Shown: positions 19,420 through 47,072, numbered from the stretch's first letter. The stretch: DNA of 64,000 bases from Candidatus Omnitrophota bacterium (GCA_016935525.1 JAFGQU010000004.1:65314-129313); one strand, 5' to 3'. Notes: generated by a model not told the origin, from the letters alone. Numbers and translations are program-made.

Positions 19420-19491
19420 TTCTATCCGATTGAGTAAAATCCGCTCTTAAAGGGGATCAAGGAGCTTACCGGAGCATACTGAGTCTGCCGG

Positions 19492-20229: not shown

Positions 20230-20292
20230 GCCTTTACCCCCTCTCTTTCTGGGCTATTATAAAAGTTATTATACAATGTTTTTCCGTGTTTT

Positions 20293-23444: not shown

Positions 23445-23461
23445 CGAACTTTTTTAGATTT

Positions 23462-24601: not shown

Positions 24602-24613
24602 TTAAATCCCCTT

Positions 24614-25774: not shown

Positions 25775-26083
25775 TTATGCACCCACTTCAAGAACCGAGT
25801 TGATTGTCCCGAAAGAATTTTTTGAAGTATTGGAATTGATCGGATCAGTCCACCACTGACCGTCTACGATAAATTTATATTCATACCGGCCGGGATTAAG
25901 GGTCATACCGATACTCCATACTCCGTTACGGTCCTTTTTCATTTTCGTGCCATTGGTGTTCCACGAATTAAAATCACCGGTTAGAGCGACTTTTTTGGCA
26001 TCAGGAGCGGTTAACTGAAAATCGACTTTCTTCCCGGCGCTCTTTTTAGCGACACTCGGTTTCAGGACTTTGGTAATTTTCAT
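25775..26083 (-). CDS. CBM48 / AMPK-beta-like glycogen-binding domain protein
   Basis: FQLTAPDAKKVALTGDFNSWNTNGTKMKKDRNGVWSIGMTLNPGRYEYKFIVDGQWWTDP matches the CBM48 fold signature. Start placed at MKITKV, which has an AAGGGGG RBS upstream. The ORF as reported extends to 26143. Confidence 0.6.
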   Translation of the reverse strand: MKITKVLKPSVAKKSAGKKVDFQLTAPDAKKVALTGDFNSWNTNGTKMKKDRNGVWSIGMTLNPGRYEYKFIVDGQWWTDPINSNTSKNSFGTINSVLEVGA

Positions 26084-26667
26084 ATTTGCCCCCTTTCTCT
26101 TGGTTTGGGTTATTTTCTTTTGCACCGAACTTTTGTTTCTCATTCTTACCCCCTTTTTTCTATTGTGCTCCCGGGCATACCTGTAGGATGCAATGAAAAT
26201 TCGTTATTGAAAAGATAATGGAAATGACTCCGGAACTTCCCTTTTATATAAAGACATCCCTGTCCATTCTGCTGGCAGGTATCAATCAGGAGATTATATT
26301 ATGTTATTAATTAAAGTTTTAGTCAATTATTTTTTTAAATAACTTATTATCCCTCTCGGCCGCCTGACGGACGAGAAGCATCCGTCCATCGAAAAAAGCT
26401 TTAAAATGAAGGGGTATTCTCCTCAGGGAACGCTTTTTGCCGGGAGAACCTCGGAAGCGGCCCGATGAAAAATCCCGGATCCGGTTCACCGAAAAACACC
26501 GGATTTTCTTCGGGAGCTTTTCCCGGCCGGGAGGCATCTCCTCTCGCCGGATAAAAAGACAGGGTATCTGATTATAATAAAAAGGCCCCTCAGAGGACGT
26601 ATTTGCGAACCCTTCACGCTCACGAAAAATACCCCTATTCATAAGAAAAATGACTACGGTTTTTTTG

Positions 26668-28067: not shown

Positions 28068-28736
28068 TTACTTTTTAGTACAAATAAATATAAAATGGTT
28101 GGAAAAATAATAAGGAATAAACAGATTACGCAACCAGGTGAGCAGCGGTTTATTGAACTTATTATGGTGTGATACCCTGAGCACAGTCAACCCGGCTTCT
28201 TCGATAAACTGTTTCCATCGCGCAAAAGAGTAGAGCGCTTCGATCTCCTGGTGACGTACCGGCCCGGCGCCTTTACGTAATGTATCCCAGATGAATTTGT
28301 AATAATAAATATTCGGAACCATGATGACCGCCTGGCCTTGCGGCTTTATCACCCGACACATCTCACTGAGGATAGAGGGAATCGAAGGGAAATGTTCCAC
28401 GATCCCCAGCGCCGTCACATAATCGAAGATATTGTCGCCAAACGGGAGGGGATCGGCATTGGCGCAGAGGATCTGTTGCGGATTACTCACCCTCTTTCGG
28501 GCGATCTCGGTAGCATTTTCGGAAAGATCGATGCCCCACAGGTCTATGCCGTTGCCCTCAAGCCCCATAAGATAGGCTCCGGTACCGCAACCGATATCCA
28601 ATAGTTTTTCTCCTTTTTGAGGAGAGATCAATCGTTTGAAAAACTCGATTTCCCGTGATTTTACCGGATGCAGTTTAAATACATCTGCTACTGATTCGGA
28701 ATTGCCATAATACGAACGGTCGTAAAAGCTGCTCAT
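28068..28736 (-). CDS. class I SAM-dependent methyltransferase
   Basis: Motif I LLDIGCGTGAY. Post-I acidic residue. Confidence 0.75.
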   Translation of the reverse strand: MSSFYDRSYYGNSESVADVFKLHPVKSREIEFFKRLISPQKGEKLLDIGCGTGAYLMGLEGNGIDLWGIDLSENATEIARKRVSNPQQILCANADPLPFGDNIFDYVTALGIVEHFPSIPSILSEMCRVIKPQGQAVIMVPNIYYYKFIWDTLRKGAGPVRHQEIEALYSFARWKQFIEEAGLTVLRVSHHNKFNKPLLTWLRNLFIPYYFSNHFIFICTKK

Positions 28737-28784: not shown

Positions 28785-29177
28785 TCACTTTTGATCCATA
28801 CTTAAATTCCCGCCGCCGAAAAGCAATAATGTAAACAGGCTCATTAAAATGACCAATACATACTCGTATCCCCCGTCGGCGAGAAAAAACCCATGGATCA
28901 GATGGACCTTCGCCATAGCGATTAACATCACTCCCGTCAAGAGTAACGCGCTCAACCGGGTGAACAGGCCCAGGATAAGAAAAATCCCGCCGATAAATTC
29001 TACATAGGCAACGACAAATGCCAATGGCCCGGCCATCGGAAACCCTAAATCCGTCAGCATTTTAGTGAATCCGGCAATCCCGGGTCCGTCAAACATTCCA
29101 AACGCCTTCTGTAAACCATGCAGAATAAATATCGTACCTAACCCTAATCTGATCGGAAATACCGCCCATTCTTTCAC
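28785..29177 (-). CDS. DoxX-family membrane protein
   Basis: 130 aa, 4 TM, with the DoxX-like helix pattern. Has a 4-nt start/stop overlap with the upstream oxidoreductase. Confidence 0.65.
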   Translation of the reverse strand: MKEWAVFPIRLGLGTIFILHGLQKAFGMFDGPGIAGFTKMLTDLGFPMAGPLAFVVAYVEFIGGIFLILGLFTRLSALLLTGVMLIAMAKVHLIHGFFLADGGYEYVLVILMSLFTLLLFGGGNLSMDQK

Positions 29178-30313
29178 TTTCTACCTCCTGTTATAAGATG
29201 GTGAATAATCCCCCATTTATTTTTCATCCCGTAACTCCGGTATATACTTAAAATATAATGTAAAAACATTCCTATCCTTCCTTTTACTTTTACGCCTAAA
29301 GCAACTCCATAGGCACGATCATTCGCCAGAGGCACTACATAACCTAAATCACAAGGCTGATAAGGGATTAACCTCTGATCCTGTATACTGCGGATCAGAT
29401 TGCGCCCGGCGCATTGTCCTTGGGTGACCGCCGCCTGTACCGATAATCTCAAAGGGACTCCGTGATATTCAAAATAAGCGGTATCGCCGGCAACAAAAAT
29501 GTTTTCCCGGCCCTCAAGACGCAAATACCGATCGACCGGCAGCCGGTTCTGCGGTAACTTCTGAGCGGTAAGCCCCGCGCAAAAAAAAGGCGTACGCACC
29601 CCGCTTACCCATAAAAACATCGCATCTTCAAAGACTTGGCCGTCAGATAATTCTATCCTTTTATTTTGACAATCTTTTACGGTAGCGTTATAGATACGGC
29701 CGATTTTCAGCTGGTCCAAGTTCCGTTCTACATGTTTTTTTATCCACTCCGGCAACGGCCCCAAAAGCGAAGAAGTTTTCTCTACAATCGTTATAGTTTT
29801 ATTTTGGTTATTTCGGTCCAAATACGCCCTTATATTGGTAGCAAGTTCAATACCGGTATACCCTCCTCCGGCAATAATAAACCGGGAATATTCGTTCCTT
29901 TTTAAAACCTCAACGATTTTTTTTACCTCATCGATATCATTAAATGTATACGCTTGTTCTTTCAATACGTCGTTTCCGTAAAAATTAGTGACTGTTCCCG
30001 GAGAAATGATCAGGTAATCATAATCCAATTTTCCCTGACGCATCTCCAAGATAGATTTTTGCGTATCAATGGCAATAACCTCGTCGCATACAAAGCGCGC
30101 CCGGCAATCTCCGGCAATCTTCGCCAAAGGATATTGAAGATACCGGGCCGGGATCCTTTTTCCGATAATATCGGGTAATAACGGCAAAAACTGGGAAGAA
30201 CGACGTGTATCGACAAGGGTTATTTCTAAATCGGTAGGGGTGCTCCGCGCGAGCGTTTTTAACGCATTGATACCGGCAAACCCGCCGCCGACGATAACAA
30301 CTTTTTTACTCAT
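29174..30313 (-). CDS. FAD-dependent pyridine nucleotide-disulfide oxidoreductase (NDH-2 / sulfide:quinone oxidoreductase type)
   Basis: Two dinucleotide-binding motifs: VVIVGGGFAG and FIIAGGGYTGIE. Confidence 0.75.
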   Translation of the reverse strand: MSKKVVIVGGGFAGINALKTLARSTPTDLEITLVDTRRSSQFLPLLPDIIGKRIPARYLQYPLAKIAGDCRARFVCDEVIAIDTQKSILEMRQGKLDYDYLIISPGTVTNFYGNDVLKEQAYTFNDIDEVKKIVEVLKRNEYSRFIIAGGGYTGIELATNIRAYLDRNNQNKTITIVEKTSSLLGPLPEWIKKHVERNLDQLKIGRIYNATVKDCQNKRIELSDGQVFEDAMFLWVSGVRTPFFCAGLTAQKLPQNRLPVDRYLRLEGRENIFVAGDTAYFEYHGVPLRLSVQAAVTQGQCAGRNLIRSIQDQRLIPYQPCDLGYVVPLANDRAYGVALGVKVKGRIGMFLHYILSIYRSYGMKNKWGIIHHLITGGRK

Positions 30314-30445
30314 AATCTGTCCTTTTATGTGCCGAGAGCTATTTTACCACAACCTTACCATAATTATAATATCAAAAGTCTCGCCCCCTCTTTTCGAGAA
30401 ATCTGCAGGTTGCCGATATTTTTCACCTATGATAGAATACAGCCG

Positions 30446-31375
30446 ATGAGAATCCATACTCAAAAATCGGTTTCTCTCTTTATCGGTCACTGGATACAGG
30501 CAATCCGCCCGTTCGCGTTTACCGCATCGATAATCCCGGTGACTCTGGGCGCAGTATTCGCTTTTGCGGGTCCATACCCGATCCGGTGGGAACTTTTTCC
30601 GTTGGTCCTGGTCTGTGCTCTGTTTTTTCACGCCGGCACCAATCTTGTGAACGATTACTACGATTTCACACGCGGTATCGATACGCTCGACAGTTTCGGG
30701 TCAAGCCGGATCCTTCCCGAACATAAGCTTACTCCCCGCCAAATCCATAGAAGCGCTCTTTTTTGTTTTGGATGCGGGTTTGGCTTGGGGATTATTCTGG
30801 TGATAATCCACGGATTACCGATGTTAGGATTGGGAATGATCGGCCTTTTAGGCGGGTATTTTTATACTGCCCGTCCAGTCGAATACAAATACCGGGCTCT
30901 GGGCGATATTTTCGTATTTATACTGATGGGACCGCTGATGGTGATCGGCTCATTTTTCGCGCTGACCGGGACATATCATCCCGGCATATTCTATGTTTCT
31001 TTACCGATAGGTTTTCTGGTCACGGCAATTCTTCATGCCAATAACCTGCGCGATATCGATCATGACCGACAAGCTCGCATCAAAACGTTCGCGAACATGT
31101 TAGGGCACCGTAACGCTCAGATAGAATATCTGATCTTGATCGGGGGAGCTTATCTCAGCGTACTTATATTAATTATCAGCCGAACTATATCACTCTGGGG
31201 GATACTGGTCTTTTTAAGTGTCCCGGTAGCTTTAAAAAATATCATGGCCATCGAAAAAAGTAAACCCCATACTCCCCAAGATCTCGCCGCCATCGATAAA
31301 GAGACCGCGAAACTCCATTTTCTTTTCGGTGCATTAATGATCGTCTCGTTCTATCTTGAGACAATCATCACATGA
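30446..31375 (+). CDS. UbiA-family aromatic/isoprenoid prenyltransferase (MenA-like motifs)
   Basis: Asp-rich motifs NLVNDYYDFTRGID and NNLRDIDHD. About 8 TM. Start placed at MRIHTQKS. The ORF as reported begins at 30329. Confidence 0.75.
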   Translation: MRIHTQKSVSLFIGHWIQAIRPFAFTASIIPVTLGAVFAFAGPYPIRWELFPLVLVCALFFHAGTNLVNDYYDFTRGIDTLDSFGSSRILPEHKLTPRQIHRSALFCFGCGFGLGIILVIIHGLPMLGLGMIGLLGGYFYTARPVEYKYRALGDIFVFILMGPLMVIGSFFALTGTYHPGIFYVSLPIGFLVTAILHANNLRDIDHDRQARIKTFANMLGHRNAQIEYLILIGGAYLSVLILIISRTISLWGILVFLSVPVALKNIMAIEKSKPHTPQDLAAIDKETAKLHFLFGALMIVSFYLETIIT

Positions 31376-31992
31376 AACACGTTTGGTTTTTCATACTTCT
31401 TGCCTTTTTTTTCTGGTTCTTACTTTTTTTCCCTCCGGTCGCTCGTAGTACTCCTTTTTGGCCGATGATGGCGACAAGCGTCACTATATTAAGCGGATGG
31501 GCATTGTATAGCCAACAGGCCTCTTTAAACAGATTGTTTTATTTTAAATCCCATCATATATGGATAGGGATCTTTTCCGCATTGTTTCTTTATGGGGTAT
31601 TTTGGGCGGGCAGAGCATTGATCAACATAATTTTTATGCAAAGCGGCCATTTTATTCAATCGATCTATCAAACAAAACAAAATACTTCACCGATGACGAT
31701 AAGCCTCCTTTTGTTATGCATTATCGGGCCGGGCGAGGAGATTTTCTGGCGGGGATATATCCAACATACGCTCACAAAAAAAACTGGCATAACGAGCGGA
31801 TATTTCTTTTCGGTTTTTCTCTATATCCTTGTACATATCTGGTCGTGTAATCCTCTATTACTTATCGCTTCCGGTATCTGCGGATTATTCTGGGGATGGT
31901 TATTTTTACGGACACGAACGCTTTGGCCGGGAATCATATCGCACGCGTTATGGGATATTCTGGTATTCGTTCTTTTTCCGCTTGCAGCTTGA
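31372..31992 (+). CDS. CPBP-family intramembrane metalloprotease (CAAX protease homolog)
   Basis: EEIFWRGYIQ and HALWD motifs. ATGA overlap with the upstream prenyltransferase gene. Confidence 0.7.
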   Translation: MKHVWFFILLAFFFWFLLFFPPVARSTPFWPMMATSVTILSGWALYSQQASLNRLFYFKSHHIWIGIFSALFLYGVFWAGRALINIIFMQSGHFIQSIYQTKQNTSPMTISLLLLCIIGPGEEIFWRGYIQHTLTKKTGITSGYFFSVFLYILVHIWSCNPLLLIASGICGLFWGWLFLRTRTLWPGIISHALWDILVFVLFPLAA

Positions 31993-32023
31993 GTTGCCCT
32001 TTAAGCTATGTTAAGATATTTTA

Positions 32024-33064
32024 ATGATTACTGAACTTAAAAAGGCTATTGACCGTAAAATCCCTTCTTTTATAAAAAGTATCGATACCACGTACTCCTT
32101 AAGCAAGATCTCTCCCCTGCTTTATACCTGTATTAAAGATTTCGTGACCCGTGACGGGAAACGGGTCCGGCCGATTCTTTTTGTCGTGGGCTATCTTGGA
32201 TTTGCCAAAAAAACCGCCCCCCGGCTCTACACCAGCGCTCTGGCGATAGAACTGCTCCACGATTTCATGCTGGTCCATGACGATATTATCGATAAATCGG
32301 ATACCCGGCGGGGCAGACCTTCGATGCACGCGTTACTCAACACTCATCTTAAAAAACTTCGCGGGTTGAAGTTTGACGGACAGGACCTGGCGATCGTGGT
32401 CGGAGACGTGATGTACGCGATGGCGATCGACGCGTTCCTCGCGATCAAAGAGGAACCTTACCGTAAAGAAAAAGCGCTTAAAAATTTTATCCGGGCGGCG
32501 ATCTTCACCGGCGGCGGGGAATTCATCGAACTGCTCAATGACGCAAAAAAGATCGAACAGGTCACTAAAAACGATATCTATAAGATCTACGATTTTAAAA
32601 CCGCCTATTATACTTTTGCTACTCCGCTTTCAACCGGAGCGATCCTTGCCGGCGCGCCTGCATCTGCGATACGCGGCCTTTCCAGTTACGGAGTCGCGTT
32701 AGGCCGGGCGTTTCAGATCAAAGACGATATTTTGGGAATATTCGGTAATGAAAAGCAAATCGGAAAATCGACCCTTTCCGATCTGCAGGAATCGAAGAAG
32801 ACGCTGCTTATCTGGAATACTTTTCTTAATTCTTCCGCGAAAGACAGGTTACGGATTAAAAAAATGCTTACTAAAGATAAAGTCACCCGAGGAGACCTCT
32901 CACTGATGCAACAGCTTATCACCCGAACGGGGGCGCTCGATTATGCCCATAGCGAGATCAAACGCCTCATAGGTCAAGCCCAGGGTATCGCTGAAAAGAT
33001 TCCAATGCACCAAAAATACAAAAAACTACTTCTCACGTATCCCGCTCAGCTTCTCCGCGTGTAA
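32024..33064 (+). CDS. polyprenyl diphosphate synthase (GGPP-synthase-like)
   Basis: First Asp-rich motif LVHDDIIDKSDTRRG (DDxxD) and second Asp-rich motif FQIKDDILG. Confidence 0.85.
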   Translation: MITELKKAIDRKIPSFIKSIDTTYSLSKISPLLYTCIKDFVTRDGKRVRPILFVVGYLGFAKKTAPRLYTSALAIELLHDFMLVHDDIIDKSDTRRGRPSMHALLNTHLKKLRGLKFDGQDLAIVVGDVMYAMAIDAFLAIKEEPYRKEKALKNFIRAAIFTGGGEFIELLNDAKKIEQVTKNDIYKIYDFKTAYYTFATPLSTGAILAGAPASAIRGLSSYGVALGRAFQIKDDILGIFGNEKQIGKSTLSDLQESKKTLLIWNTFLNSSAKDRLRIKKMLTKDKVTRGDLSLMQQLITRTGALDYAHSEIKRLIGQAQGIAEKIPMHQKYKKLLLTYPAQLLRV

Positions 33065-33116
33065 TATTTCCCCTTTTCTTAAAGATCATTATTCAAGAAG
33101 TATGTCGAAAGATTGG

Positions 33117-33343
33117 ATGTATTTTTACCACAGAGCTCACAGAGAGCATAGAGGAAAATAAAATAGTCCGTCTCGGTTTATCAAGGATATTTGGTTTCTT
33201 CCCATCGAATATCGATGGGATATTTTTGCAAAAACAATTAAAACCGGAAAATATAATTTTCCGGTTTCATGCGGTTTTTGCAAAGAAAAGCGCAAAAACG
33301 CGAAACCAAATGTCCGTCTTATTATCTCTGTGGGACTCTGTGT
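33117..33343. repeat. MITE-like repeat, copy A (inverted relative to copy B)
   Basis: 227 bp bounded by ACCACAGAGCTCACAGAG ... CTCTGTGTCCTCTGTGGT terminal inverted repeats. Internal palindromes CCCATCGAATATCGATGGG and AAACCGGAAAATATAATTTTCCGGTTT. About 75-80 % identical to 58519-58758 when reverse-complemented. Confidence 0.7.
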
Positions 33344-33396
33344 CCTCTGTGGTAGAACTATCTCTCTTTTAGCAAACACAACTTGATAAGAGGAAA

Positions 33397-34272
33397 TCAG
33401 AAACAGACGAATTTACATGTTCCCGCTTGCACGTCGAGTGCGATCTCGTTTTGGGGATCAAGAGTAAGCGCTTTGGTGATATATTCTTCGTATTTGGCAA
33501 GATCGCCTTTGGCGCGATAGGCTTGCGCTAACCGCGCGTATATATCGGGAAACCGCGGATCTTTTACGATCGCTTTTTCCAGGTATTCTATACCTTTATC
33601 GATATCCCGCCCCAGTACCGGCGGGATGAGCATATAATAACTCCCCATACCGTAAAGCACCGAAACACTGTCCGGCTTGATCTTTTCGGCCGCTTTCAAA
33701 TGAGGCAATACCGCCGCGCCGTTGACGGCTTTTGAAAGCGGCCCGCCATAATGGGCGATCATTCCTTTGGCTCCGGCATACAGGCCGTGAGCGTTGGCCA
33801 TATTCATAGAATTCACTTTTTGTTCGCCTAACCGCAACACGGTTGCGGTAAGCCTTACGGTCTCTTCGAATTCCATCTGCATATAACGGATATACCCTAA
33901 ACTGATATAAGCCGGAGCAAATTGAGGATCCTGGGCGATTACCTCTTTCAGTATCCGTTCGGACTCACCGTACCGGTGGCCGCGCCGTAAACACTCGGCA
34001 ATACCCCATCGGGCCGGAATATCTTGAGGATTGAGACCATACAGTTTCTGAAATATCTTTTCGGCTTTTTCGTCCTCGTGTGCGGTCAAATACGCTAACG
34101 CCAGCGTATAAAGTTCCGCGGGTAAAGCGGTATTTTGATCTATCTGCGCCTCGGCTTCCGGTAGAGTCATCGTATCGGCTCGTTCATGGAGCCTGATCCA
34201 GTCGAAATCCGCGCCCATACCGAAAGAACCTATCCAACAGGTTATTAGAAAAAAAACAATGATTCTCTTCAT
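33397..34272 (-). CDS. secreted TPR-repeat protein
   Basis: Signal peptide. Repeated TPR-like A/Y/L helical hairpins. Confidence 0.6.
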   Translation of the reverse strand: MKRIIVFFLITCWIGSFGMGADFDWIRLHERADTMTLPEAEAQIDQNTALPAELYTLALAYLTAHEDEKAEKIFQKLYGLNPQDIPARWGIAECLRRGHRYGESERILKEVIAQDPQFAPAYISLGYIRYMQMEFEETVRLTATVLRLGEQKVNSMNMANAHGLYAGAKGMIAHYGGPLSKAVNGAAVLPHLKAAEKIKPDSVSVLYGMGSYYMLIPPVLGRDIDKGIEYLEKAIVKDPRFPDIYARLAQAYRAKGDLAKYEEYITKALTLDPQNEIALDVQAGTCKFVCF

Positions 34273-34568
34273 GAACGCATCTTCTTTTTAAAAAATTCCC
34301 AGGACACTATAGTAAGCGTCACTAAACTGAAATTAAACAGAAAATCTTCCAGAGGTATCGTCCCGTATTTTATCCCGAGAATCATCTTAGGATTATACCG
34401 GACAATACCCGCGCCGGTGATAAAGCCGTTGACGATAATCATCAATATCACAAACAGCATGAAATATACCCAGAATTTTTTGTTTTTCAGCAGGGAAACT
34501 CCCGTTATACGGTCGATCAGTATCGTTACTACGACTGAAATGGCGGCAAAAACGGTATATTCTTTCAT
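34269..34568 (-). CDS. lycopene cyclase domain protein (heterodimeric CrtYc/Yd-type subunit)
   Basis: 99 aa, 3 TM, with the IPLEDFLF (PxE[ED]) motif of lycopene-cyclase-domain proteins. Confidence 0.6.
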   Translation of the reverse strand: MKEYTVFAAISVVVTILIDRITGVSLLKNKKFWVYFMLFVILMIIVNGFITGAGIVRYNPKMILGIKYGTIPLEDFLFNFSLVTLTIVSWEFFKKKMRS

Positions 34569-34569
34569 A

Positions 34570-34872
34570 TCACTTTTTCCAAAAATAATTCACTGTTTCC
34601 CAGGTAAACACACAACAAAAAGGTATGACAATAAAAAAAAGCGCCTCTTCTAACGGTACATTGACGATATAAATATTACCTACGCTCGCGGGATCAAAAA
34701 ACCAATGGCCGCGCCAGGTAGCTCCTACATCCCATATTCCGAAACCCAAAAGGATAATGGTGGTAGTTTTTACTAACGCCCGCCAATTACGCCAGAAGCC
34801 CAGCCCAGGCCAGAAACTCAATAAAAACGGGAATATACCGGATAAAAAAAGAACCCACATATACCGGGACAT
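34570..34872 (-). CDS. lycopene cyclase domain protein (second heterodimer subunit)
   Basis: About 100 aa from MSRYMWVLF, with the VPLEEALFF motif. The ORF as reported extends to 35025 into crtB. Confidence 0.55.
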   Translation of the reverse strand: MSRYMWVLFLSGIFPFLLSFWPGLGFWRNWRALVKTTTIILLGFGIWDVGATWRGHWFFDPASVGNIYIVNVPLEEALFFIVIPFCCVFTWETVNYFWKK

Positions 34873-34938
34873 AAAAAGATTGTATCTTAAATGCCCCCCT
34901 TGTTCAAACGAAAACTCTATTGATTCACACAGGTTTAC

Positions 34939-35829
34939 GTGTACAATGAAAAAATGATGGCGGCCAAAGGCGATTCCCTGATCAAAGCCGGATACAAAAT
35001 TGCCCGTACACTGACCCGTATCCATGCCCGTACGTTTTATTTCGCTTCACTCTTTTTAACCGCGGCCCAAAAACCGGCGGTTTATTCAGTATACGCGATC
35101 TGCCGCAGGAGCGATGATATCGTCGATACGGAAGGAAATTCCGATAGAAAAAAGGACCTCGCGGCGATGGAAAACAAAATAACGCACGCTTACTCGAACG
35201 AGCCGCTTCCCGACCCGTTACTCGCTGCGTTCCGTCATACCGTACACGAATATGCCATCCCGAAAAGCTATTTTGACGAACTCCTCAAAGGTATGGCTAT
35301 GGATCTGGAAAAACCGCGGTATGAAAATTTTCAGGAACTCTCGCTTTATTGTTACCGGGTAGCCGGCGTGATCGGGCTGATCATACTTAAGATATTCAAA
35401 ACGGACACCCCCGAAGCCGAACCGCCAGCGATCGCGCTAGGGATCGCCATGCAACTTACCAATATCTTAAGAGATATCCGTGAAGATTATCTTAAAAAAA
35501 GAATATATGTTCCTCAGGACGAACTGCGCCGGTTCGGAGTAACCGAGACTCAATTGGCTCAACATACCGTAGATAATAATTTTATCGCACTGATGAGGTT
35601 TCAAATCGACCGAGCTCATGAGTATTACCGCCAATCGGCCGAAGGGGTTAAATTGATCAAGGCTGCCCGCGACCGGTATGTCGCCGGAATAATGAAAGAA
35701 GCCTATGAAAAGATCCTTGATGAGATAGAATTAAAAAATTACGATATATTTTCTCAGAAAGTATTTGTACCGTTAAGAAAAAAGATAATGACCGCGTTAC
35801 GGTTATTAGGAAAAGAGACCTGGGCATGA
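34939..35829 (+). CDS. crtB: phytoene synthase (squalene/phytoene synthase family)
   Basis: YCYRVAGVIGL and NILRDIREDY Asp-rich motifs. Its stop overlaps the ispH start (ATGA). Confidence 0.8.
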   Translation: MYNEKMMAAKGDSLIKAGYKIARTLTRIHARTFYFASLFLTAAQKPAVYSVYAICRRSDDIVDTEGNSDRKKDLAAMENKITHAYSNEPLPDPLLAAFRHTVHEYAIPKSYFDELLKGMAMDLEKPRYENFQELSLYCYRVAGVIGLIILKIFKTDTPEAEPPAIALGIAMQLTNILRDIREDYLKKRIYVPQDELRRFGVTETQLAQHTVDNNFIALMRFQIDRAHEYYRQSAEGVKLIKAARDRYVAGIMKEAYEKILDEIELKNYDIFSQKVFVPLRKKIMTALRLLGKETWA

Positions 35830-36668
35830 AGATCAATCTCGCCCGTTCGGCAGGATTTTGTTTTGGAGTAAAAAGAGCGTTAAAGCTTGCCTATCAAACC
35901 GCGAAAGCAAGACCTTCGGTGGTAATGCTCGGCGATATCGTCCATAACGAAGAAGTCGTAAAAGATATCACTGCCGCCGGTATAAAGAAAATAGACCGTC
36001 TGGGTAAAGGCAAAAAAACTACCCTGCTTATCCGCGCGCACGGCGCCTCTAAAAAGACGATCGAGCGGGCCCACACACAAGGCTACGCTATCGTTGACGC
36101 TACCTGCCCGATGGTGAAAGAGATCCATACTCTGGCCCATACGGCCGAACGTCAAGGGTATACCGTCATCATCATCGGAGACAAAAAACACGATGAGGTG
36201 CAGGGAATCATCGGACAACTGCAGAGTAACGCTCTCGTGATCGACTATCTCAAAAATATACCTACGCGAAAGCTTACTTCTCTGACTAAAGCCGCGGTAG
36301 TAGTCCAATCGACTCAGAATATGGAAAAAGTATTGGAGATCGTCGATAAAATAAAAAAATACGTCCCCGACCTGAAATTTTTTAATACTATCTGTAACCC
36401 TACCCGGATCAAGCAGAAAGAGATCCTCACTTTACCGCTGGAGAACGACGTAATCCTGGTGATCGGCTCAAAGATGAGCGCAAATACCCGGCGGCTCTAT
36501 GAACTCGCCCGGGGTCTTAATCGCCGTACCTACTGGATCCAGTCAAAAAAAGAACTGCGGAAACGCTGGTTTAAAAATACCCGCAGCGTAGGGATAACTG
36601 CCGGAGCATCTACTCCCGATAAAATCACAAACGAGATCGTCGCTTACCTTAAAACCTTCACTCTGTGA
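35826..36668 (+). CDS. ispH: 4-hydroxy-3-methylbut-2-enyl diphosphate reductase
   Basis: N-terminal NLARSAGFCFGVKRA and the conserved Cys triad context of IspH/LytB. 280 aa. Confidence 0.9.
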   Translation: MKINLARSAGFCFGVKRALKLAYQTAKARPSVVMLGDIVHNEEVVKDITAAGIKKIDRLGKGKKTTLLIRAHGASKKTIERAHTQGYAIVDATCPMVKEIHTLAHTAERQGYTVIIIGDKKHDEVQGIIGQLQSNALVIDYLKNIPTRKLTSLTKAAVVVQSTQNMEKVLEIVDKIKKYVPDLKFFNTICNPTRIKQKEILTLPLENDVILVIGSKMSANTRRLYELARGLNRRTYWIQSKKELRKRWFKNTRSVGITAGASTPDKITNEIVAYLKTFTL

Positions 36669-36679
36669 CCTTTTGTATA

Positions 36680-38119
36680 TTACGATTGTTCGATAAGATC
36701 GGCAACGATACGTGAAGAGGCGATCACCGGTGGGAGCCCTTCTCCGGGTTGAGTGCTGCATCCGACAAAATAGGCATTTTTATAACGCCGGTCGCGGTTC
36801 GGCGGACGAAAAAAGGCGCTTTGCATAAGCGTATGGGCAAGGCCAAACGTCGCGCCATGGTACACGTTATAACGGGAAACGAAATCTTCCGGATAAAACC
36901 GGTGTTCTACTTCGATCAAATCTTCGATATCCTCGCCGATGACGGTTTTGATCTTTTCAAATACCAGTTTTCTTAACCGCGGTTCATACTCACGGAACTG
37001 GCCTTGATAGGTCTCCAAGTTAGGTACCGGTATCAGGATATAGACGATATCTTTACCGGGCGGCGACATCAAAGGGTCTGTCACCGTCGGTACATGGACA
37101 TAAAATGAAGGGTCAGCGGGCACGACCCCTTCATGGAATATTTCGTTCAAATTCTTATCGAGGTCTTCGGCAAAGAAAAGGTTATGATGTTCTAGGTTTT
37201 TTATCTTCTTCTTCAAACCCAGATAGAGCAGGTATACCGAACAGGAATACTCATATTTGGGAAGCATACGATTAAGTAAAGTCTTCTGCGCATAGGCATA
37301 ATCGGCATTGACGACGGCAATATCGAACTGTTCTTTTTGACCGTGCACAGAAAGCGCCGGTTGACGGCGGTACTGGATGTGTGTTACCTCGCTGTCGTAA
37401 TGGAACTCCACCCCGAATTCCCGTCCCAACCGTTCCAGGTTTAAAGGGATCTGATACATCCCTCCCAAAGGATGGAACACTTTCTGGACATGATCGGCGT
37501 AGGTGATCACACTGTAGAATGCCGGAGCGTGGAAAGGAGACACTCCGATAAACATCGCTTCAAAAGTAAAGGCATAGACAAGTTCGTCAGTCTTAAAGAA
37601 ATCGTGGGCCAGACGCCAATAGGTCTTATGGGTCTTTAGTTTCCACAACAGGCTCCAATAAGCGGGATTACACAGCGCTTTGGGAGTAAAACTTTTATAC
37701 AGCAACGGTTCGACCGATGTATACATATCCCCTACATCGGCAAGAAACCTATCGAACTGCCGAGAGCTGCCCGGTTCGATTTTTTCCAGTTCCGCTTTCG
37801 TCTTCTCGCTGTCACGATAGATGACCAGTTCTTTCCCGGAAGGATAAAATATCTTGTAATGGATATCGAGCGGAGCCAGATGAAGATAGTCGGAAAGATC
37901 ACGACCGCAGTAATCAAAGATCTCTTTGAAAAAAGAAGGCATCAATACAAACGAAGGGCCGGTATCGAATTTAAATCCGGCATCTTCGATAATATGCGCC
38001 CGGCCGCCGGGACGGGGAAGTTTTTCGAACACATCGACTTTATATCCGCGGGATCCCAGACGGGCCGCAGTCGCAAGCCCTCCTACTCCCGCGCCGACAA
38101 TAGCGATATGTTTTTTCAT
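36680..38119 (-). CDS. crtI: phytoene desaturase (CrtI family)
   Basis: N-terminal FAD fold IAIVGAGVGGLATAARL. C-terminal CrtI signature region YFVGCSTQPGEGLP. Confidence 0.8.
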   Translation of the reverse strand: MKKHIAIVGAGVGGLATAARLGSRGYKVDVFEKLPRPGGRAHIIEDAGFKFDTGPSFVLMPSFFKEIFDYCGRDLSDYLHLAPLDIHYKIFYPSGKELVIYRDSEKTKAELEKIEPGSSRQFDRFLADVGDMYTSVEPLLYKSFTPKALCNPAYWSLLWKLKTHKTYWRLAHDFFKTDELVYAFTFEAMFIGVSPFHAPAFYSVITYADHVQKVFHPLGGMYQIPLNLERLGREFGVEFHYDSEVTHIQYRRQPALSVHGQKEQFDIAVVNADYAYAQKTLLNRMLPKYEYSCSVYLLYLGLKKKIKNLEHHNLFFAEDLDKNLNEIFHEGVVPADPSFYVHVPTVTDPLMSPPGKDIVYILIPVPNLETYQGQFREYEPRLRKLVFEKIKTVIGEDIEDLIEVEHRFYPEDFVSRYNVYHGATFGLAHTLMQSAFFRPPNRDRRYKNAYFVGCSTQPGEGLPPVIASSRIVADLIEQS

Positions 38120-38219: not shown

Positions 38220-38933
38220 TCATTCCGGATGCTCTTTATGGGGCCGTGAGGTATCGGTAAGCCGTTCGGGATGATGTTTGACTACTTCGGCTTTTACCAT
38301 ATAAATAATATCTTCGGCGATATTCGTCACGTGATCGGCGATCCGTTCCAGATGACGGGTGATCAAAAGGAGCGGGATAGCGCGGGGAACACATTTTCCG
38401 TTCTTGACCATATATTCATATACCAATTCGTCAAAGATCATATTTCTGAGTTTATCGGCTTCCGGGTCCGAAAGGATCACCGATCTGGCCAGTTGTTCAT
38501 CCTGGTTTACAAACGCGTCGATCACGTCTTTGATCATCCGGCGTACTACCGCGGTAAGTTTAGGGATATCGATCAGCGGTTTGATTAAAGGCTCGTTACC
38601 TAAATCGAGGACCCGTTGCGATATATTTACGGCAAGATCTGCGATCCGTTCGAGTTCGGCGTTGATGCTCATACCGGTAGTGATAAACCGCAGGTCCCGC
38701 GCTTTAGGATTCTGCAGGGCCAAAAAATCGATTGCCATCTCTTCGATCAACAGTTCCTGCTCGTCAATGATATGGTCGTCATCGATAACGCCCCGGGCAA
38801 GTGTAAGATCGCGGTTTTTTAGGGATTCGACCGACTTATAGATCGCTTCTTCGGTCAACGTCGCCATCTTCAGGATCTCGGTGTTAAACTTTTTCAGATC
38901 ATTTTCGAAATGTCTTTTGATATTCATAAGCAC
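38220..38933 (-). CDS. phoU: phosphate signalling complex protein PhoU
   Basis: Two PhoU repeats with ERIADLAVNI / ERIADHVTNIAEDI motifs. Confidence 0.85.
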   Translation of the reverse strand: MLMNIKRHFENDLKKFNTEILKMATLTEEAIYKSVESLKNRDLTLARGVIDDDHIIDEQELLIEEMAIDFLALQNPKARDLRFITTGMSINAELERIADLAVNISQRVLDLGNEPLIKPLIDIPKLTAVVRRMIKDVIDAFVNQDEQLARSVILSDPEADKLRNMIFDELVYEYMVKNGKCVPRAIPLLLITRHLERIADHVTNIAEDIIYMVKAEVVKHHPERLTDTSRPHKEHPE

Positions 38934-39048
38934 TCCTTGATTCTTTCTCTCTCTATCTTTCTGCCTTTAAAATTATCGCCTCTCCTGAGGTATTCTTCAA
39001 TCGTTTTACTCAAAGGATACCGGATGATAAAAACACCGTCGGAACTGA

Positions 39049-39810
39049 TCATCCAAACCGCCCGGTAATATAGTCTTCAGTGACTTTCTTGGCCGGGTTA
39101 GTAAAGATCTTTGGCGTAAGGTCATATTCGACCATCTGGCCTAACATGAGAAACGCGGTATAATCGGAAATCCGCGCGGCCTGTTGCATATTATGAGTAA
39201 CGATGATAATCGTATACCTTTTTTTCAATTCCTGGATAAGTTCTTCGATTTTTGAAGTCGAAGTAGGGTCAAGGGCCGATGCCGGTTCGTCCATAAGCAA
39301 CACTTCCGGTTCGACCGCAAGAGCCCGGGCAATACAGAGCCGTTGCTGCTGGCCGCCGGAAAGGGCAAGAGCGCTGTCGTTCAGACGGTCTTTCACCTCG
39401 CCCCATAATGCCGCGTCTTTAATGCTTTTTTCTACTTTACGGCGGATATATTGCCGGTCTTTTATCCCGTTGACGCGTAACCCGTAGGCGACGTTCTCAA
39501 AAATAGATTTAGGAAACGGATTCGGTTTCTGAAATACCATCCCGATTTTCCGGCGGACATCCACTACATCCTCATCCGGGCCATAAATGTTATGGCCGTC
39601 AAGCAACACCTCCCCTTCAATCCGGGCATGAGGGATAAGATCGTTCATCCGGTTCAACAAGCGGATAAGCGTTGATTTTCCGCATCCGGATGGGCCGATG
39701 ATCGCCGTCACCCGGTTACGGTACACTTGTATATTAATATCACACAACGCCTGTTTGGTGCCGTAATAAAAGTTCATGTTTTTTATTTCCATCCGTACTT
39801 TTTCATCCAT
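39049..39810 (-). CDS. pstB: phosphate ABC transporter ATP-binding protein PstB
   Basis: [25 protein letters not shown], and the PstB-typical C-terminus. Start placed at MDEKVR. The ORF as reported extends to 39894. Confidence 0.9.
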
Positions 39811-40655
39811 TAACTCATACTCCTTTGTTTTTGCCGTATAAAGATCGCCAAAGTAGAAACCGTAAGTACCAGTATCAAAAGAATAAGGGCGCACCCGTAG
39901 GCGATCTTCGTCTGGGCGACCGGATGGGCCCCTTCGGTCATTAACGCGTAAATATGATAAGGTAACGCCATCACTTCCGAAAAGATCGATTTGGGATATC
40001 CACGCATGTAAAACGTTCCGGCGGTAAACAGGATCGGAGCGGTCTCACCGGCTACCCTTCCCACACTTAAGATCACTCCGGTCAAAATCCCCGGTAACGC
40101 CGAAGGAACGACGATCTTCTTTATGGTATACCATTGCGTCGCCCCCAGCGCAAGGGACGCTTCGCGGTACGACTGGGGTACCGCCATAAGCGATTCCTGT
40201 GATGCGGAGATGATACTGGGTAACACCATGATCGCTAACGTAAGACAACCGGAAAGGATCGAAACTCCGAATCCTAAAAATTTCACGAATACCGCCATAC
40301 CGAACAGGCCGAATACTACCGAAGGTACCCCGGCAAGATTATTGATACTGATCCGGATGATATTTACCACTACACTTTTCGGGCTATATTCACACAGATA
40401 TACCGCACAGGCCAAACCCAGAGGAAGCGCGATCATAATCGAACCCAGAGTAAGATAAAAAGTACCGACAATCGCCGGAGCGACCCCGCCCTGGGTCATG
40501 AATTTACGGGGAACGTCGGTCAAAAATTGCCAGGAAATGGCGCCGGCTCCGCGGACCACTATAAAATAGATCAACGTACCTAAAAAGAATACCGTGATCA
40601 ACGCGCATAACGAAAGACAGATAAACCCCAGTTTCTGAGTAATATCTTTATTCAT
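39810..40655 (-). CDS. pstA: phosphate ABC transporter permease PstA
   Basis: 6 TM permease with an EAA-like loop. Position in the pst operon. Confidence 0.85.
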
Positions 40656-41551
40656 CGTCCTAACCCTAATTTTACACGGAACCGGCGGCTGATTATTTCC
40701 GCGATGATATTAAAAACCAGGGTGAAAAGAAAAAGGATCAACCCGATTGCAAATAACGCGTGATAATGCGCCCCGCCCATGACCGCCTCACCCATTTCCG
40801 CGGCAATCGTCGCGGTCATCGGACGGACCGGCTGAAAAAACGAATGCGGAATCACCGCCGCACCGCCGCAGACCATTAATACCGTCATTGTCTCGCCGAT
40901 CGCCCGGCTCATCCCTAAGATGATCGCCGTAGAAATACCGCTTCCGGCCGCCGGCATGATCACATTGATAAGGGTCTGCCAACGGTTCGCGCCCAACGCG
41001 TAAGACGCCTCCCGAAAGCTTTTCGGTACAAAACTTAACGCGTCTTCGGCAATACTGCATACCGTAGGAGTCGCCATGATCCCGAGCATCAGGCTACCGG
41101 TAAAAGCGTTTAACCCGACGGATAAATGAAAAGTCCTCTGGATGAAAGGAGCAACGATGACCATACCGAAAAATCCGTACACGATCGAAGGTATCGCCGC
41201 CAGGATCTCGATCAACGGTTTTAAAACCGATTTCTGTGTATACCCGGCCAATTCATGGATATAAAGCGCGCTGCCGACTCCGAGCGGCACACACACCCCC
41301 AGCGCTCCTATCGTCACCCATAACGACCCTAACATGATCGGTAAAATACCGAATTCGGCATCGGCATGAGTCGGATACCAATATCGGCCGAACAGAAAGT
41401 CAAACACACTGACTTTCTGGAATATCGGTAACCCTTCTTTAAAAAGTATCACCGTAATCCCTAACAAAAAAAACAAAGACGCAAACGCCAGTATCGTAAA
41501 GATACCGCGATATATATTTTCTTTAAATTTTGTGACGTTTTTAATTTTCAT
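40652..41551 (-). CDS. pstC: phosphate ABC transporter permease PstC
   Basis: 6 TM permease. Position in the pst operon. Start placed at MKIKNV. The ORF as reported extends to 41638. Confidence 0.85.
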   Translation of the reverse strand: MKIKNVTKFKENIYRGIFTILAFASLFFLLGITVILFKEGLPIFQKVSVFDFLFGRYWYPTHADAEFGILPIMLGSLWVTIGALGVCVPLGVGSALYIHELAGYTQKSVLKPLIEILAAIPSIVYGFFGMVIVAPFIQRTFHLSVGLNAFTGSLMLGIMATPTVCSIAEDALSFVPKSFREASYALGANRWQTLINVIMPAAGSGISTAIILGMSRAIGETMTVLMVCGGAAVIPHSFFQPVRPMTATIAAEMGEAVMGGAHYHALFAIGLILFLFTLVFNIIAEIISRRFRVKLGLGR

Positions 41552-41683
41552 CCTTTTAAAAACCAAGATTTTCTTTCCGGGACACACCCGATGGCCGCAG
41601 CAAAATAAAAAAAGGCACCACGGCAGGATGGAAAACATCCCGCCGTGTACCTTAAGAAAGGAGTCCTACGCCTTGTGACCCGT

Positions 41684-42511
41684 CTATTTTAACGGGACAA
41701 ACCCGTTCTCTTTTGCCAGACTCTGACCTTCCCAGCTTAACACAAAATCCATAAAATTCTTTATCGCGCCGGTAGGCTTTCCATTAGTATACATGAACAG
41801 CGGCCGGGCTAACGCATACGTTCCCGAAAGTACTGTCTCCTCCTTCGGCATGACCCCGTCGACCGGGATCGCTTTTACGGTCGAATCGACATACCCCAAT
41901 CCGACATACCCGATCGCGCCGGGCGTTGTCTGGACCACTTGTTTTACCGCCGCGTTCGACGCTTCCAGTAACGCGTCCGGACGGGTCTTCGCTTTATGCA
42001 GAGCCAGTTCGGTAAAAGCTTCAAACGTTCCCGAGGCTGAATCGCGGCCGATCACCACGATCTTTCCTCCGCTCCCGCCGACATCCGACCAGCTGGAAAT
42101 ACCTCCGGTATAGATCGCTTTGAGATCTTTTTTACTAATCGCGCTGATCCGGTTTGCGTTATTCACAATCACGGCAATACCGTCCATCGCCACGACATGG
42201 GCTTTAGGGTCTTTTCCCCGGCTGATCGCGCTGGATAATTCGGCGTTTTTGATCGGCCGGGACGCATCGCCGATATCGGCAGTACCGTCGATGATCGAAG
42301 CGATCCCTACTCCGGAACCGCCGCCCTGTACGGAAATGTTTACGGAAGGATTTTGGTCCATATAGCTTTCCGCGCAGGCCTGGGCAATCGGGAGGACGGT
42401 CGTCGACCCTTTGATCGTGATAGTATCAGCGTGAGCATTCACCGGACATACCAACGCGAATATCGCCAGTGTCAGAGTGTATATTCCTAATTGTCGTTTC
42501 AGTTTATTCAT
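41684..42511 (-). CDS. pstS: phosphate-binding protein PstS
   Basis: Signal peptide. Periplasmic binding-protein fold with an STVLP / GSGVG-like phosphate-binding loop. Confidence 0.85.
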   Translation of the reverse strand: MNKLKRQLGIYTLTLAIFALVCPVNAHADTITIKGSTTVLPIAQACAESYMDQNPSVNISVQGGGSGVGIASIIDGTADIGDASRPIKNAELSSAISRGKDPKAHVVAMDGIAVIVNNANRISAISKKDLKAIYTGGISSWSDVGGSGGKIVVIGRDSASGTFEAFTELALHKAKTRPDALLEASNAAVKQVVQTTPGAIGYVGLGYVDSTVKAIPVDGVMPKEETVLSGTYALARPLFMYTNGKPTGAIKNFMDFVLSWEGQSLAKENGFVPLK

Positions 42512-42554
42512 CCTTATTCCTCCTTTACATAATTATGTTGTCCCTTATCTTGCG

Positions 42555-43787
42555 TTAGAACTTCATAAGCCAATCAAGCTGTAAGATATGGACTTTTCCC
42601 GTCCCTTTGATCTGTTTCATCTGATAATAATCAACGCCAAGAGAGGTATTCGGCCCTAAGCCGTAGGCTAATATCACTTCATGTCCTTTTACGTTGGTCT
42701 CTCCGCTATAGGCATCGGAATCAGGGAATGTATCCAGCCAGGCATCTTTTTCGAGCCGGCGATATATATATTTCAACTGCCAGTCACCTCGGTTCTTGAT
42801 TTTATCGGCACCGAACGCCATACCGAGGAGATATCCGTTTTCGGCTTCATCAGGATCAAAGTTGTGGATATATTCGCCGAAAAGAGACAAAGCCGGGACG
42901 ATCCCGCCGAACGGTTCTTTTACCTTCAATTTAAAGTTAGGGTTAATCGAATTGAAATTATATTTGTAGCCGGACGCGGTCATGGTCGGCCCGCCTTCGG
43001 CATGATCTAACGTACTGTCTTTGACTCCATTAAATCCCCAGTAAGCGACTCCGCCTTCCATACTCACCGTATCGCTGATCTTGTATTTCATCGCCGGCTG
43101 AAACACATACATCATCGGATCCGATGTATCCGATGACGATTCATCCAGAATAAACGCCCCGGTATTGAACATCCAGGTCACATCGCCGGACTTTTTGGCA
43201 AAAGCTAACGCGATACCTCCCGGATTGATATCGCCATCCCAGAGCAGATCGTCCTGAAGCATCACCACGTTTTTCATCCCGGCGATCTTACCGGCTTTGA
43301 CTGTTGCCCAGTCATTAGGGGTATAGGTCGCATAGGCATAATCCAGACGGATATCCGGGGTCTCAAACGTATTGTCGAAGGTCTGGTTCGTGGAACGGGG
43401 ATCGGTCCCGCCGGTCGCGAGTCCCGCGGCAACCTTGACCTTATCGTTCACCTTCGACTCCATACCCAGACGGAAACGCATGCGATAACGTTGCCGATCG
43501 TCAGAGTTCGGCTTATCTTCGTACTGATACCGTAATCTTAGGTCTCCTTTTAACTTCATGGTCTGGATCCATTGCGGTAACGATTCGGAAGTACCCCGGA
43601 CGAGCTCTTTACGTACCTCTTCTTGGGTCTCGGTAAGGATCGTTTGAGCTTCCCCGTAACTGAGCACGCCTTTTTCCACTAACTTCTCTACCAGGATATC
43701 GATCTCACCGGCGCGGGCATCGCAGGCAAACGCCATTGATCCGAAGAGAATAGCGGCGACTAAAAATGATTTGAGACTGTTTCCCAT
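42555..43787 (-). CDS. outer-membrane porin (candidate phosphate-selective porin of the Pho regulon)
   Basis: Signal peptide (MGNSLKSFLVAAILFGSMAFA), with AGGAG RBS upstream. Beta-barrel-like and aromatic-rich, ending in a terminal F. Immediately upstream of pstS. The ORF as reported extends to 43892. Confidence 0.55.
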   Translation of the reverse strand: MGNSLKSFLVAAILFGSMAFACDARAGEIDILVEKLVEKGVLSYGEAQTILTETQEEVRKELVRGTSESLPQWIQTMKLKGDLRLRYQYEDKPNSDDRQRYRMRFRLGMESKVNDKVKVAAGLATGGTDPRSTNQTFDNTFETPDIRLDYAYATYTPNDWATVKAGKIAGMKNVVMLQDDLLWDGDINPGGIALAFAKKSGDVTWMFNTGAFILDESSSDTSDPMMYVFQPAMKYKISDTVSMEGGVAYWGFNGVKDSTLDHAEGGPTMTASGYKYNFNSINPNFKLKVKEPFGGIVPALSLFGEYIHNFDPDEAENGYLLGMAFGADKIKNRGDWQLKYIYRRLEKDAWLDTFPDSDAYSGETNVKGHEVILAYGLGPNTSLGVDYYQMKQIKGTGKVHILQLDWLMKF

Positions 43788-44098
43788 TGCTCTTACTCCT
43801 CCTTTTTTATGTAGGTGATTATTATTATTCATATACCGAACGGGTAGTGGATATGTGACAAAAAAATTGTTCAGATGCATATTCGTGACCACTCACCTCC
43901 TCTCTCACCAGTTTTTTTATTAATCGCGGGCAATCCTTATAATGTAGATTCATACAAAATTCGTTTTCCCAGAACGAAGAAAGTTCTCTCAATCGTGCCG
44001 ATTTTTTTGTGCAAAAACTTTTTCTTACCCCTTTTTGAAAAAACCGACATTGGTGATGGCTATTGTTCACAGTCTTCATCTTTTTCTGATATGAGTAG

Positions 44099-44341
44099 TC
44101 AGTTCTCAATAAAGTTGCGCAGTCGTCTTAAGTCCACTTCTACCCGGCGGATCGATTCGATAAGGTACCGATATTCCGGATGAGCCCCTCTTTCGATCGC
44201 ATCCAACAGATCTCCGAGCGTAGTGACTTGACAACGTAAATAACTGACGACATAATCCTGATTTACACTTGAAATCGTCGGCATATTCATCTTGTCTTTC
44301 ATCCCTCTCCTGTTATTTCCATTTTCATCCTGTATATTCAT
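44099..44341 (-). CDS. small hypothetical protein between phoR and the porin
   Basis: 80 aa ORF in the Pho cluster. No motif. Confidence 0.3.
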   Translation of the reverse strand: MNIQDENGNNRRGMKDKMNMPTISSVNQDYVVSYLRCQVTTLGDLLDAIERGAHPEYRYLIESIRRVEVDLRRLRNFIEN

Positions 44342-44436
44342 CCTGATTTTATTATCAACAATCGTGTGAAAGCGGGTTTACGACTCTGTGAAATGTCTGT
44401 GAACTTAAAGGGAAAATGGCCAAAAATCGGGGCAGG

Positions 44437-46215: not shown

Positions 46216-46219
46216 AAGC

Positions 46220-46906: not shown

Positions 46907-47072
46907 AATGGGATTGCCTTGATTATGCTTTGGGCTATTATAACAAAAAGATGGCTCAGGGTAAATCAGGACGTTAAAATATCATACACGAACCTTTAGA
47001 CAAATAAAATAAGATATGGTAATATAATTATCCTTACATAAAGGCAAAATAATTCAAACTACACTATAGGAT

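Follow-up and report, generated by a model that had tools for sequence, protein, structure and literature searches.

A split-cyclase carotenoid gene set next to a predicted MenA-type prenyltransferase gene in Candidatus Omnitrophota

Positions 30446 to 38119 of a 64,000-nucleotide stretch of DNA from a Candidatus Omnitrophota bacterium (metagenome-assembled genome GCA_016935525.1, JAFGQU010000004.1:65314-129313; the whole stretch is called the window here) carry a set of carotenoid genes that includes a split lycopene cyclase and, in the same neighbourhood, a gene for a UbiA-family prenyltransferase. We consider it highly probable that this region consists of two adjacent isoprenoid-lipid modules, one directed at a C40 cyclic carotene by way of a CrtI-type desaturase and the split cyclase, and the other at quinone prenylation by a MenA-type enzyme. 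This reading is carried by the assignment of the genes to families, the phylogenetic placement of the UbiA protein, and a conserved gene order, all of which are observed directly. An initial annotation of this DNA had treated the same combination of genes as a candidate for elongated (C45/C50) or prenylated carotenoids. That proposal does not stand, given that the UbiA protein groups with MenA, has no match to the model for lycopene elongases, is not encoded beside the cyclases, and has no counterpart in the majority of related loci. A UbiA gene beside a split cyclase is by itself no sign of a C50 pathway, and a tempting mis-annotation is thereby corrected.

In the scheme that we favour, the carotenoid module would convert geranylgeranyl diphosphate (GGPP) to phytoene (crtB) and then to lycopene (crtI), which would be cyclised by a heterodimeric cyclase of the CrtYc/CrtYd type. 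The ispH gene would boost the supply of precursors, and a TPR protein would be co-transcribed with the cyclases. In the quinone module, a naphthoquinone head group would receive its prenyl tail from a MenA/UBIAD1-type prenyltransferase. No C45 or C50 pigment is predicted, because the UbiA enzyme, as classified below, does not elongate lycopene. Plausibly, the modules are placed together by a common pool of prenyl diphosphates, to which ispH and the prenyl synthase would contribute, and by the need of CrtI for a quinone where oxygen is lacking. Quinones can stand in for O2, the terminal acceptor of CrtI, when O2 is absent (PMC3382138), and a quinone acceptor would matter in the mostly anaerobic Omnitrophota.

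A predicted MenA-type enzyme in place of a lycopene elongase

The UbiA gene (30446..31375, plus strand; PF01040, E 1.9e-36, 126 bits) codes for a protein of 309 amino acids (aa) that is 100% identical to a database entry (P0001) carrying the NCBI name 1,4-dihydroxy-2-naphthoate octaprenyltransferase. All gene families were assigned by listing open reading frames (ORFs) and scanning them with Pfam and NCBIfam, the latter with its curated cut-offs. On the menA equivalog model TIGR00751 the protein passes with 132.1 bits (cut-off 102.15), and NF004751 gives it 204 bits; the narrower PRK06080 sub-models reach 204 bits, all under their cut-offs. With the exception of PRK05951 in fourth place, the top eight NCBIfam matches are MenA-type models. 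Identity as a chlorophyll synthase, digeranylgeranylglyceryl phosphate (DGGGP) synthase, heme O synthase, UbiA or MqnP was rejected, with scores of 41 bits or less versus 132-204 bits for the MenA models.

The elongase references were CrtEb of Corynebacterium glutamicum and C. efficiens, CrtE2 of Micrococcus luteus, and LbtBC of Dietzia, translated from the genes in the supplement of PMC6393565, and MenA, UbiA and CyoE were taken from the Escherichia coli K-12 genome. On the elongase-type model NF009608, and on NF010119 and NF009516, CrtEb of C. glutamicum scores 489.5, 149 and 129 bits, whereas the window protein has no match at all to the first two and reaches 23 bits on the third (cut-off 205). 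In pairwise alignment, E. coli MenA matches the whole length of the window protein (27% identity, 105 bits), whereas CrtEb matches over only 163 aa (22% identity, 35 bits). The best solved relative in the PDB is UBIAD1, the homologue of MenA in eukaryotes (E 8e-31; residues 15-301), to which homology likewise runs over the full length and with which both Asp-rich motifs are held in common.

The initial annotation had called the second of these motifs, NNLRDIDHD, MenA-like and had allowed that the protein might be a menaquinone enzyme, and on both counts it was sound. The motifs of the window protein, NLVNDYYDFTRGID and NNLRDIDHD, align with NLANDYGDAVKGSD and NNLRDINSD of E. coli MenA as well as with those of UBIAD1, and both have the MenA form (N-x-x-N-D-Y-x-D...G-x-D and NNxRDxxxD). 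The corresponding motifs of CrtEb, INDVFDYESD and AVQDVxADRE, are different, and the signature motifs of elongases (INDVFDYESDxRNPRKGG and QDVxxDRE) do not appear in the window protein on pairwise alignment.

A phylogeny of the UbiA protein had been proposed as the means to distinguish CrtEb-type from MenA-type enzymes, and the one that we ran does not favour the former. In a small neighbour-joining tree (300 bootstraps) that included the four actinobacterial elongases, the window protein clusters firmly within MenA, in one clade (98% bootstrap) with E. coli MenA, Omnitrophota relatives, and proteins from five other lineages that are named MenA. The elongases, all four of them, group on their own (100%), and E. 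coli UbiA and CyoE lie outside the MenA clade. Homologues with 50-55% identity to the window protein occur in Planctomycetota, Zixibacteria, Ignavibacteriota and Desulfomonilaceae, and every one of these that has a name is called MenA.

We therefore identify the window protein, from its sequence, as a MenA-type enzyme and not a lycopene elongase. Compared with E. coli MenA it has its own peculiarities, among them the low identity and the scores under the PRK06080 cut-offs given above. Its gene is also predicted to share a transcript with the CPBP protease and short-chain prenyl synthase genes and lies beside carotenoid genes, and genes of the 1,4-dihydroxy-2-naphthoate (DHNA) pathway are not seen in the 64-kb window.

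The alternative, in which the UbiA protein would be a carotenoid prenyltransferase or lycopene elongase and, together with the split cyclase, give rise to C45/C50 or prenylated carotenoids, has precedent, since in known C50 pathways heterodimeric cyclases of the same domain family operate alongside an elongase from the UbiA family (PMC3598387; PMC6393565). CrtEb, CrtE2 and LbtBC belong to the same UbiA superfamily as the window protein and likewise come from genomes with heterodimeric cyclases of the Lycopene_cyc domain. However, the window protein belongs to another subfamily by model, pairwise score, clade and motif, and the arrangement of the genes differs too. Elongase genes follow the cyclase genes directly or are fused to them, as in LbtBC, a cyclase-elongase fusion. 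In the window, the UbiA gene instead heads a co-oriented group of menA, CPBP and prenyl synthase genes on the strand opposite to the cyclases, from which it is separated by three genes (for CPBP, prenyl synthase and TPR proteins) and a strand switch. Family models, motifs, tree, non-adjacency and the census of related loci described next together speak strongly against an elongase identity for this protein, and we regard the corresponding pathway as exceedingly improbable.

Distribution and order of the genes in related loci

The census of related loci was made with a 51-sequence cyclase alignment against species-representative genomes and took in 80 loci of more than 543 confirmed matches, the ORFs of which were searched with the window proteins, CrtEb and one divergent Omnitrophota UbiA. 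Of these 80 loci, 59 belong to the Omnitrophota type, 50 of which have enough flanking sequence to decide on the presence of a UbiA-family gene within 10 kb. No such gene is found at 29 of these 50 loci. Another 19 have one of a divergent, MenA-like type, with 31% identity to the window protein, two have a MenA of the window type (both with CPBP), and a CrtEb type occurs at none. The cyclases do without UbiA genes in most of the genomes that can be judged, which counts against an elongase partner, although the recurrence of a UbiA-family gene near the carotenoid genes at the other 21 loci counts in its favour.

The recurring order is crtI / ispH-crtB / cycA-cycB-TPR / prenyl synthase / (UbiA) / NDH-2-DoxX, where cycA and cycB stand for the two cyclase genes, and the gene order of the window interval is seen again in dozens of Omnitrophota genomes. 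Because a UbiA gene, wherever one is present at the census loci, always has the prenyl synthase gene on one side and the NDH-2-like gene on the other, the UbiA genes go with the prenyl synthase and the quinone-related genes. UbiA and cyclase genes can also be far apart. The complete genome CP070684.1 has MenA, prenyl synthase and TPR genes at ~516 kb with no crt genes nearby, and crtB with two cyclase genes at ~330 kb, leaving MenA and the cyclases ~190 kb apart, a separation that again speaks against an elongase. The TPR gene, which lies 3' of both cyclase genes in most Omnitrophota loci, has here stayed with MenA and the prenyl synthase and not with the cyclases. No crtI was found within 10 kb of the crtB locus of CP070684.1, and this lineage may have a decaying or rearranged carotenoid module. 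Beside its crtB there is only an 88-aa ORF with weak similarity to IspH (L029:8828-9094; 34 bits).

The divergent MenA-like proteins form a second subfamily. They are represented by L009:12579-13484 and 18 other loci (e.g. L019, L020, L024, L025, L033 and L052), have NEIPDRQTD as the second motif, and score 66 bits on TIGR00751, under its cut-off. At L009 the stop of the divergent UbiA gene overlaps the start of the NDH-2-like gene. Several loci that show the typical Omnitrophota order (L014, L017, L018, L022, L023, L026 and L043) are in metagenome-assembled genomes labelled Planctomycetia, delta proteobacterium, Patescibacteria, Thermodesulfobacteriota or Chloroflexota. Such labels are probably the result of taxonomic mislabelling or binning errors.

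Had it been true, the C50 reading would have placed elongated carotenoids in a new phylum by way of a new enzyme lineage, and this does not hold. What the census does reveal is a complete CrtI-type pathway with a split cyclase, in a fixed order, in many genomes of the uncultured and largely anaerobic Omnitrophota. The pathway is habitually flanked by quinone-related genes, which fits the transfer of electrons from CrtI to quinones without oxygen. The word carotenoid is absent from the main text of a phylum-wide survey of Omnitrophota genomes (PMC10066038), and our literature search found nothing specific on carotenoids of Omnitrophota, the papers that name both being devoted to other topics.

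The carotenoid genes and the predicted pigment

The two cyclase genes lie 1 nt apart on the minus strand and each codes for a small protein with a single lycopene-cyclase domain. The upstream gene, cycA (34570..34872; PF18916, E 1.2e-11), encodes a 100-aa subunit of the CrtYc/CrtYe kind, and cycB (34269..34568; PF18916, E 3.7e-13) encodes a 99-aa subunit of the CrtYd/CrtYf kind. Both are above the cut-off of TIGR03462 (39.4), with 62.3 bits for the 100-aa protein and 56.7 bits for the 99-aa protein, and the former gene is also called as a 100-aa gene on an identical Logan contig. A PxEE motif had been ascribed to both proteins, which holds for the 100-aa protein (VPLEEALFF) but not for its partner, where the motif is PxED (IPLEDFLF). 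In an alignment of four sequences the P, E, L and F of this motif are invariant.

CrtYc and CrtYd are the heterodimeric lycopene cyclases of actinobacterial C40 pathways, whereas CrtYe/Yf and CrtYg/Yh belong to C50 pathways. Like these three pairs, the window pair consists of two adjacent genes of ~100 codons, each with one PF18916/TIGR03462 domain and one PxE(E/D) motif. The 100-aa protein matches CrtYe, and the 99-aa protein has no match to CrtYe but does match CrtYf, CrtYh and the cyclase portion of LbtBC, such that one subunit is of the Ye type and the other of the Yf/Yh type. On these grounds the two proteins are predicted to be a genuine heterodimer pair of the CrtYc/CrtYd type. The pair differs from the actinobacterial cyclases in its very low identity to them (17-26 bits), in the translationally coupled TPR gene that comes next, and in having no elongase partner. 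The ring of its product may be of the beta, gamma or epsilon type.

The TPR gene (33397..34272, minus strand) has multiple TPR matches in Pfam and overlaps the stop of cycB by 4 bp. Its product has an N-terminal signal-like segment and is without a known role in carotenoid or quinone pathways. As a side observation, this protein measures ~290 aa, and its gene is translationally coupled to the second cyclase gene.

The crtI gene (36680..38119, minus strand) encodes a CrtI-type phytoene desaturase that passes TIGR02734 (crtI_fam) with 430.6 bits (cut-off 238.1), reaches 389.5 bits on NF058655 (CrtID), under the cut-off of 640, and has the dinucleotide-binding motif GAGVGGLA at its N terminus. 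The ispH gene (35826..36668, plus strand; PF02401, E 1.3e-87), for 4-hydroxy-3-methylbut-2-enyl diphosphate (HMBPP) reductase, scores 279.3 bits on NF002187 (cut-off 276) and 263.9 bits on TIGR00216 (cut-off 187.85). Its start overlaps the stop of crtB by 4 bp, and the crtB-ispH pair is kept in related loci.

The crtB gene (34957..35829, plus strand) is divergent from the cyclase operon, and the membership of its product in the SQS_PSY family is certain (PF00494, E 6.6e-74). Its precise kind is less easily assigned. The best NCBIfam match is HpnD (240 bits, cut-off 278.6), a cyanobacterial CrtB model is nearly as good (226 bits, cut-off 550), and the closest solved relatives are CrtM and dehydrosqualene synthases, which are C30 enzymes. 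Because the protein falls under all cut-offs and its nearest solved structures are C30 enzymes, we infer C40 chemistry from the GGPP-type synthase and the cyclases, and the predicted pigment would be a mono- or bicyclic C40 carotene.

The same data could be taken to mean that the products of the pigment module are C30 (diapo) carotenoids or derive from squalene, with the SQS_PSY protein as a dehydrosqualene or presqualene synthase. The HpnD match and the CrtM structures favour this possibility. However, the scores concerned are all under their cut-offs, the cyanobacterial CrtB model does nearly as well, the adjacent prenyl synthase is of the GGPP type, and Pfam scans of the window found no HpnC, HpnE or squalene-hopene cyclase. 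Lycopene cyclases, moreover, belong to C40 and C50 pathways and are not known in C30 ones, and the PDB has no known bona fide bacterial CrtB, which biases a comparison of structures. A C30 or squalene/hopanoid (HpnCDE) role for crtB and crtI is accordingly considered very unlikely.

The C40 pathway that we propose has its nearest classical counterpart in crtE-B-I-Y clusters such as those of Pantoea, with which it shares a GGPP synthase, a phytoene synthase, a single CrtI desaturase and a cyclase. The window differs in having a split CrtYcd-type cyclase in place of the CrtY flavoprotein, an embedded ispH, and a GGPP synthase gene in the menA operon and not the crt operon. The host, too, is different, being a member of a non-phototrophic candidate phylum.

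Quinone-related context

The prenyl synthase gene (32024..33064, plus strand; PF00348, E 1.9e-51) is predicted to encode a short-chain trans-prenyl diphosphate synthase of the GGPP type. The best NCBIfam models are of the GGPP and IdsA types, all under their cut-offs, and the best PDB match is the GGPP synthase of P. horikoshii (1wy0). Its first Asp-rich motif reads DDIID and has a Phe at position -5, which, as a chain-length determinant, would mark the protein as a short-chain, archaeal-type GGPP synthase.

Between this gene and the UbiA gene lies a gene for a CPBP/Rce1-like intramembrane protease (31372..31992, plus strand; PF02517, E 2.4e-19), the start of which shares 4 bp with the stop of the UbiA gene. 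MenA and CPBP genes are likewise paired at L003, at L018, and in a Phycisphaerales genome without nearby crt genes, which suggests a conserved pair in bacteria of the Planctomycetes-Verrucomicrobia-Chlamydiae (PVC) group. The CPBP gene overlaps the stop of the MenA-type gene in the window, at L003 and in the Phycisphaerales genome (L093:8924-9457), and adjoins it at L018.

On the other side, and divergent from the UbiA gene, is a gene for an NDH-2-like flavoprotein (29174..30313, minus strand; Pyr_redox_2, E 1.9e-31), whose best solved relatives are bacterial NDH-2 proteins (4nwz, E 5e-27; YjlD; S. aureus NDH-2), followed by FSP1. Downstream of it, and overlapping it, is a gene for a DoxX-family membrane protein (28785..29177, minus strand; PF07681) with weak matches to HvfX and DoxD family models. 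The DoxX and NDH-2-like genes occur together in many related loci. At L003, the closest relative (UbiA 69% identity), the genes follow each other as in the window, except that one more gene lies immediately upstream of the UbiA gene. This additional gene (L003:9267-9962, between the NDH-2-like gene and menA) encodes MenG/UbiE, with 209.5 bits on TIGR01934 (cut-off 158.35). The counterpart of this slot in the window is only a 132-bp gap (30314-30445). A methyltransferase gene at 28068-28736 was considered as a MenG candidate and rejected, given its 60 bits on TIGR01934 versus the cut-off of 158 and the coexistence of such a gene with a true UbiE/MenG gene at L003.

Several findings weigh against our interpretation of the region as a C40 carotene module beside a MenA-type quinone module. 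A Pfam scan of nearly all ORFs in the 64-kb window turned up neither men nor mqn genes, nor a gene for MenG or a long-chain prenyl synthase, and menaquinone pathways are reported to be patchy across Omnitrophota (PMC10066038). The tree that divides MenA from the elongases is of the small neighbour-joining kind and not a maximum-likelihood tree, and is without haloarchaeal LyeJ. The crtB product lies under every equivalog cut-off and has C30 enzymes as its best solved relatives. Finally, a UbiA-family gene adjoins the block of crt and prenyl synthase genes at 21 of the 50 decidable loci, and this linkage is therefore recurrent, not accidental.

With genes of the DHNA pathway not found in the 64-kb window, the naphthoquinone substrate of the UbiA enzyme follows from family membership only, and the head group would be DHNA or a related compound, joined to a tail whose length is likewise a prediction. 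One could propose instead that the organism lacks de novo synthesis of DHNA and that the MenA-type enzyme acts in UBIAD1-like salvage, taking GGPP made by the co-transcribed prenyl synthase to prenylate a scavenged naphthoquinone head group and so making a short-tailed, menaquinone-4 (MK-4)-like quinone that would serve NDH-2/DoxX and CrtI. UBIAD1, the best solved relative, uses GGPP; the only prenyl synthase in the operon is of the GGPP type; and the lack of men and mqn genes in the 64 kb, like the patchy quinone pathways and host-dependent traits reported in Omnitrophota (PMC10066038), would be in keeping with salvage. The search, however, covers 64 kb, and the remainder of the genome may encode a long-chain synthase and a men or futalosine pathway. 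Bacterial MenA genes often lie apart from the rest of the men genes, as in E. coli, and the short tail is itself a prediction from sequence. We consider salvage of this kind unlikely. A still bolder version would make the region a self-contained oxygen-independent unit, in which the MenA/UBIAD1-like enzyme and the GGPP of its own operon yield a short-tailed quinone from a scavenged head group as the anaerobic acceptor for CrtI, the whole forming a phylum-wide isoprenoid-lipid island of host-dependent nanobacteria. This we offer as a speculation that is quite unlikely to hold in full.

Gene layout and neighbouring genes

The genes listed by the initial annotation for this interval (a GGPP-type synthase, crtB, crtI, two lycopene-cyclase-domain proteins of ~100 aa, and UbiA) were all recovered there by Pfam and NCBIfam, and the family-match E-values for the interval genes are far beyond chance. 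Three further genes in the interval, for the CPBP protease, the TPR protein and ispH, had been passed over, as had the NDH-2-like and DoxX genes just upstream (28785-30313). Both ends of the interval are true gene starts, 30446 being the ATG of the UbiA gene and 38119 the start of crtI on the minus strand.

A pattern scan placed two terminator-like hairpins in the convergent gap, one after the synthase gene (33200-33220, plus strand) and one after the TPR gene (33269-33239, minus strand); they are well placed, although the region as a whole has no more of these sites than would be expected from shuffling. For promoters and terminators together, the scan gave counts no higher than in shuffled sequence, and an Rfam scan of 26-42 kb gave no regulatory RNA matches.

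Further afield, a glycogen-metabolism neighbourhood occupies positions 9153-11705 and 18262-26143 (minus strand) of the window. It includes genes for glycogen phosphorylase, two GH57-family proteins, a nucleotidyl transferase, a GT4/GT5 glycogen-synthase-like protein, a CBM48 protein and DUF4912, and within it is a gene for a 478-aa protein without a Pfam match (~20293-21729). On the other side, beyond crtI, come the genes for PhoU and then pstBACS, which belong to a phosphate-uptake block spanning 38220-48755. The members of this block are PhoU, pstB, pstA, pstC, pstS, a porin, a PhoR/PhoB-like two-component pair and a fusion of a Na/Pi cotransporter with PhoU.

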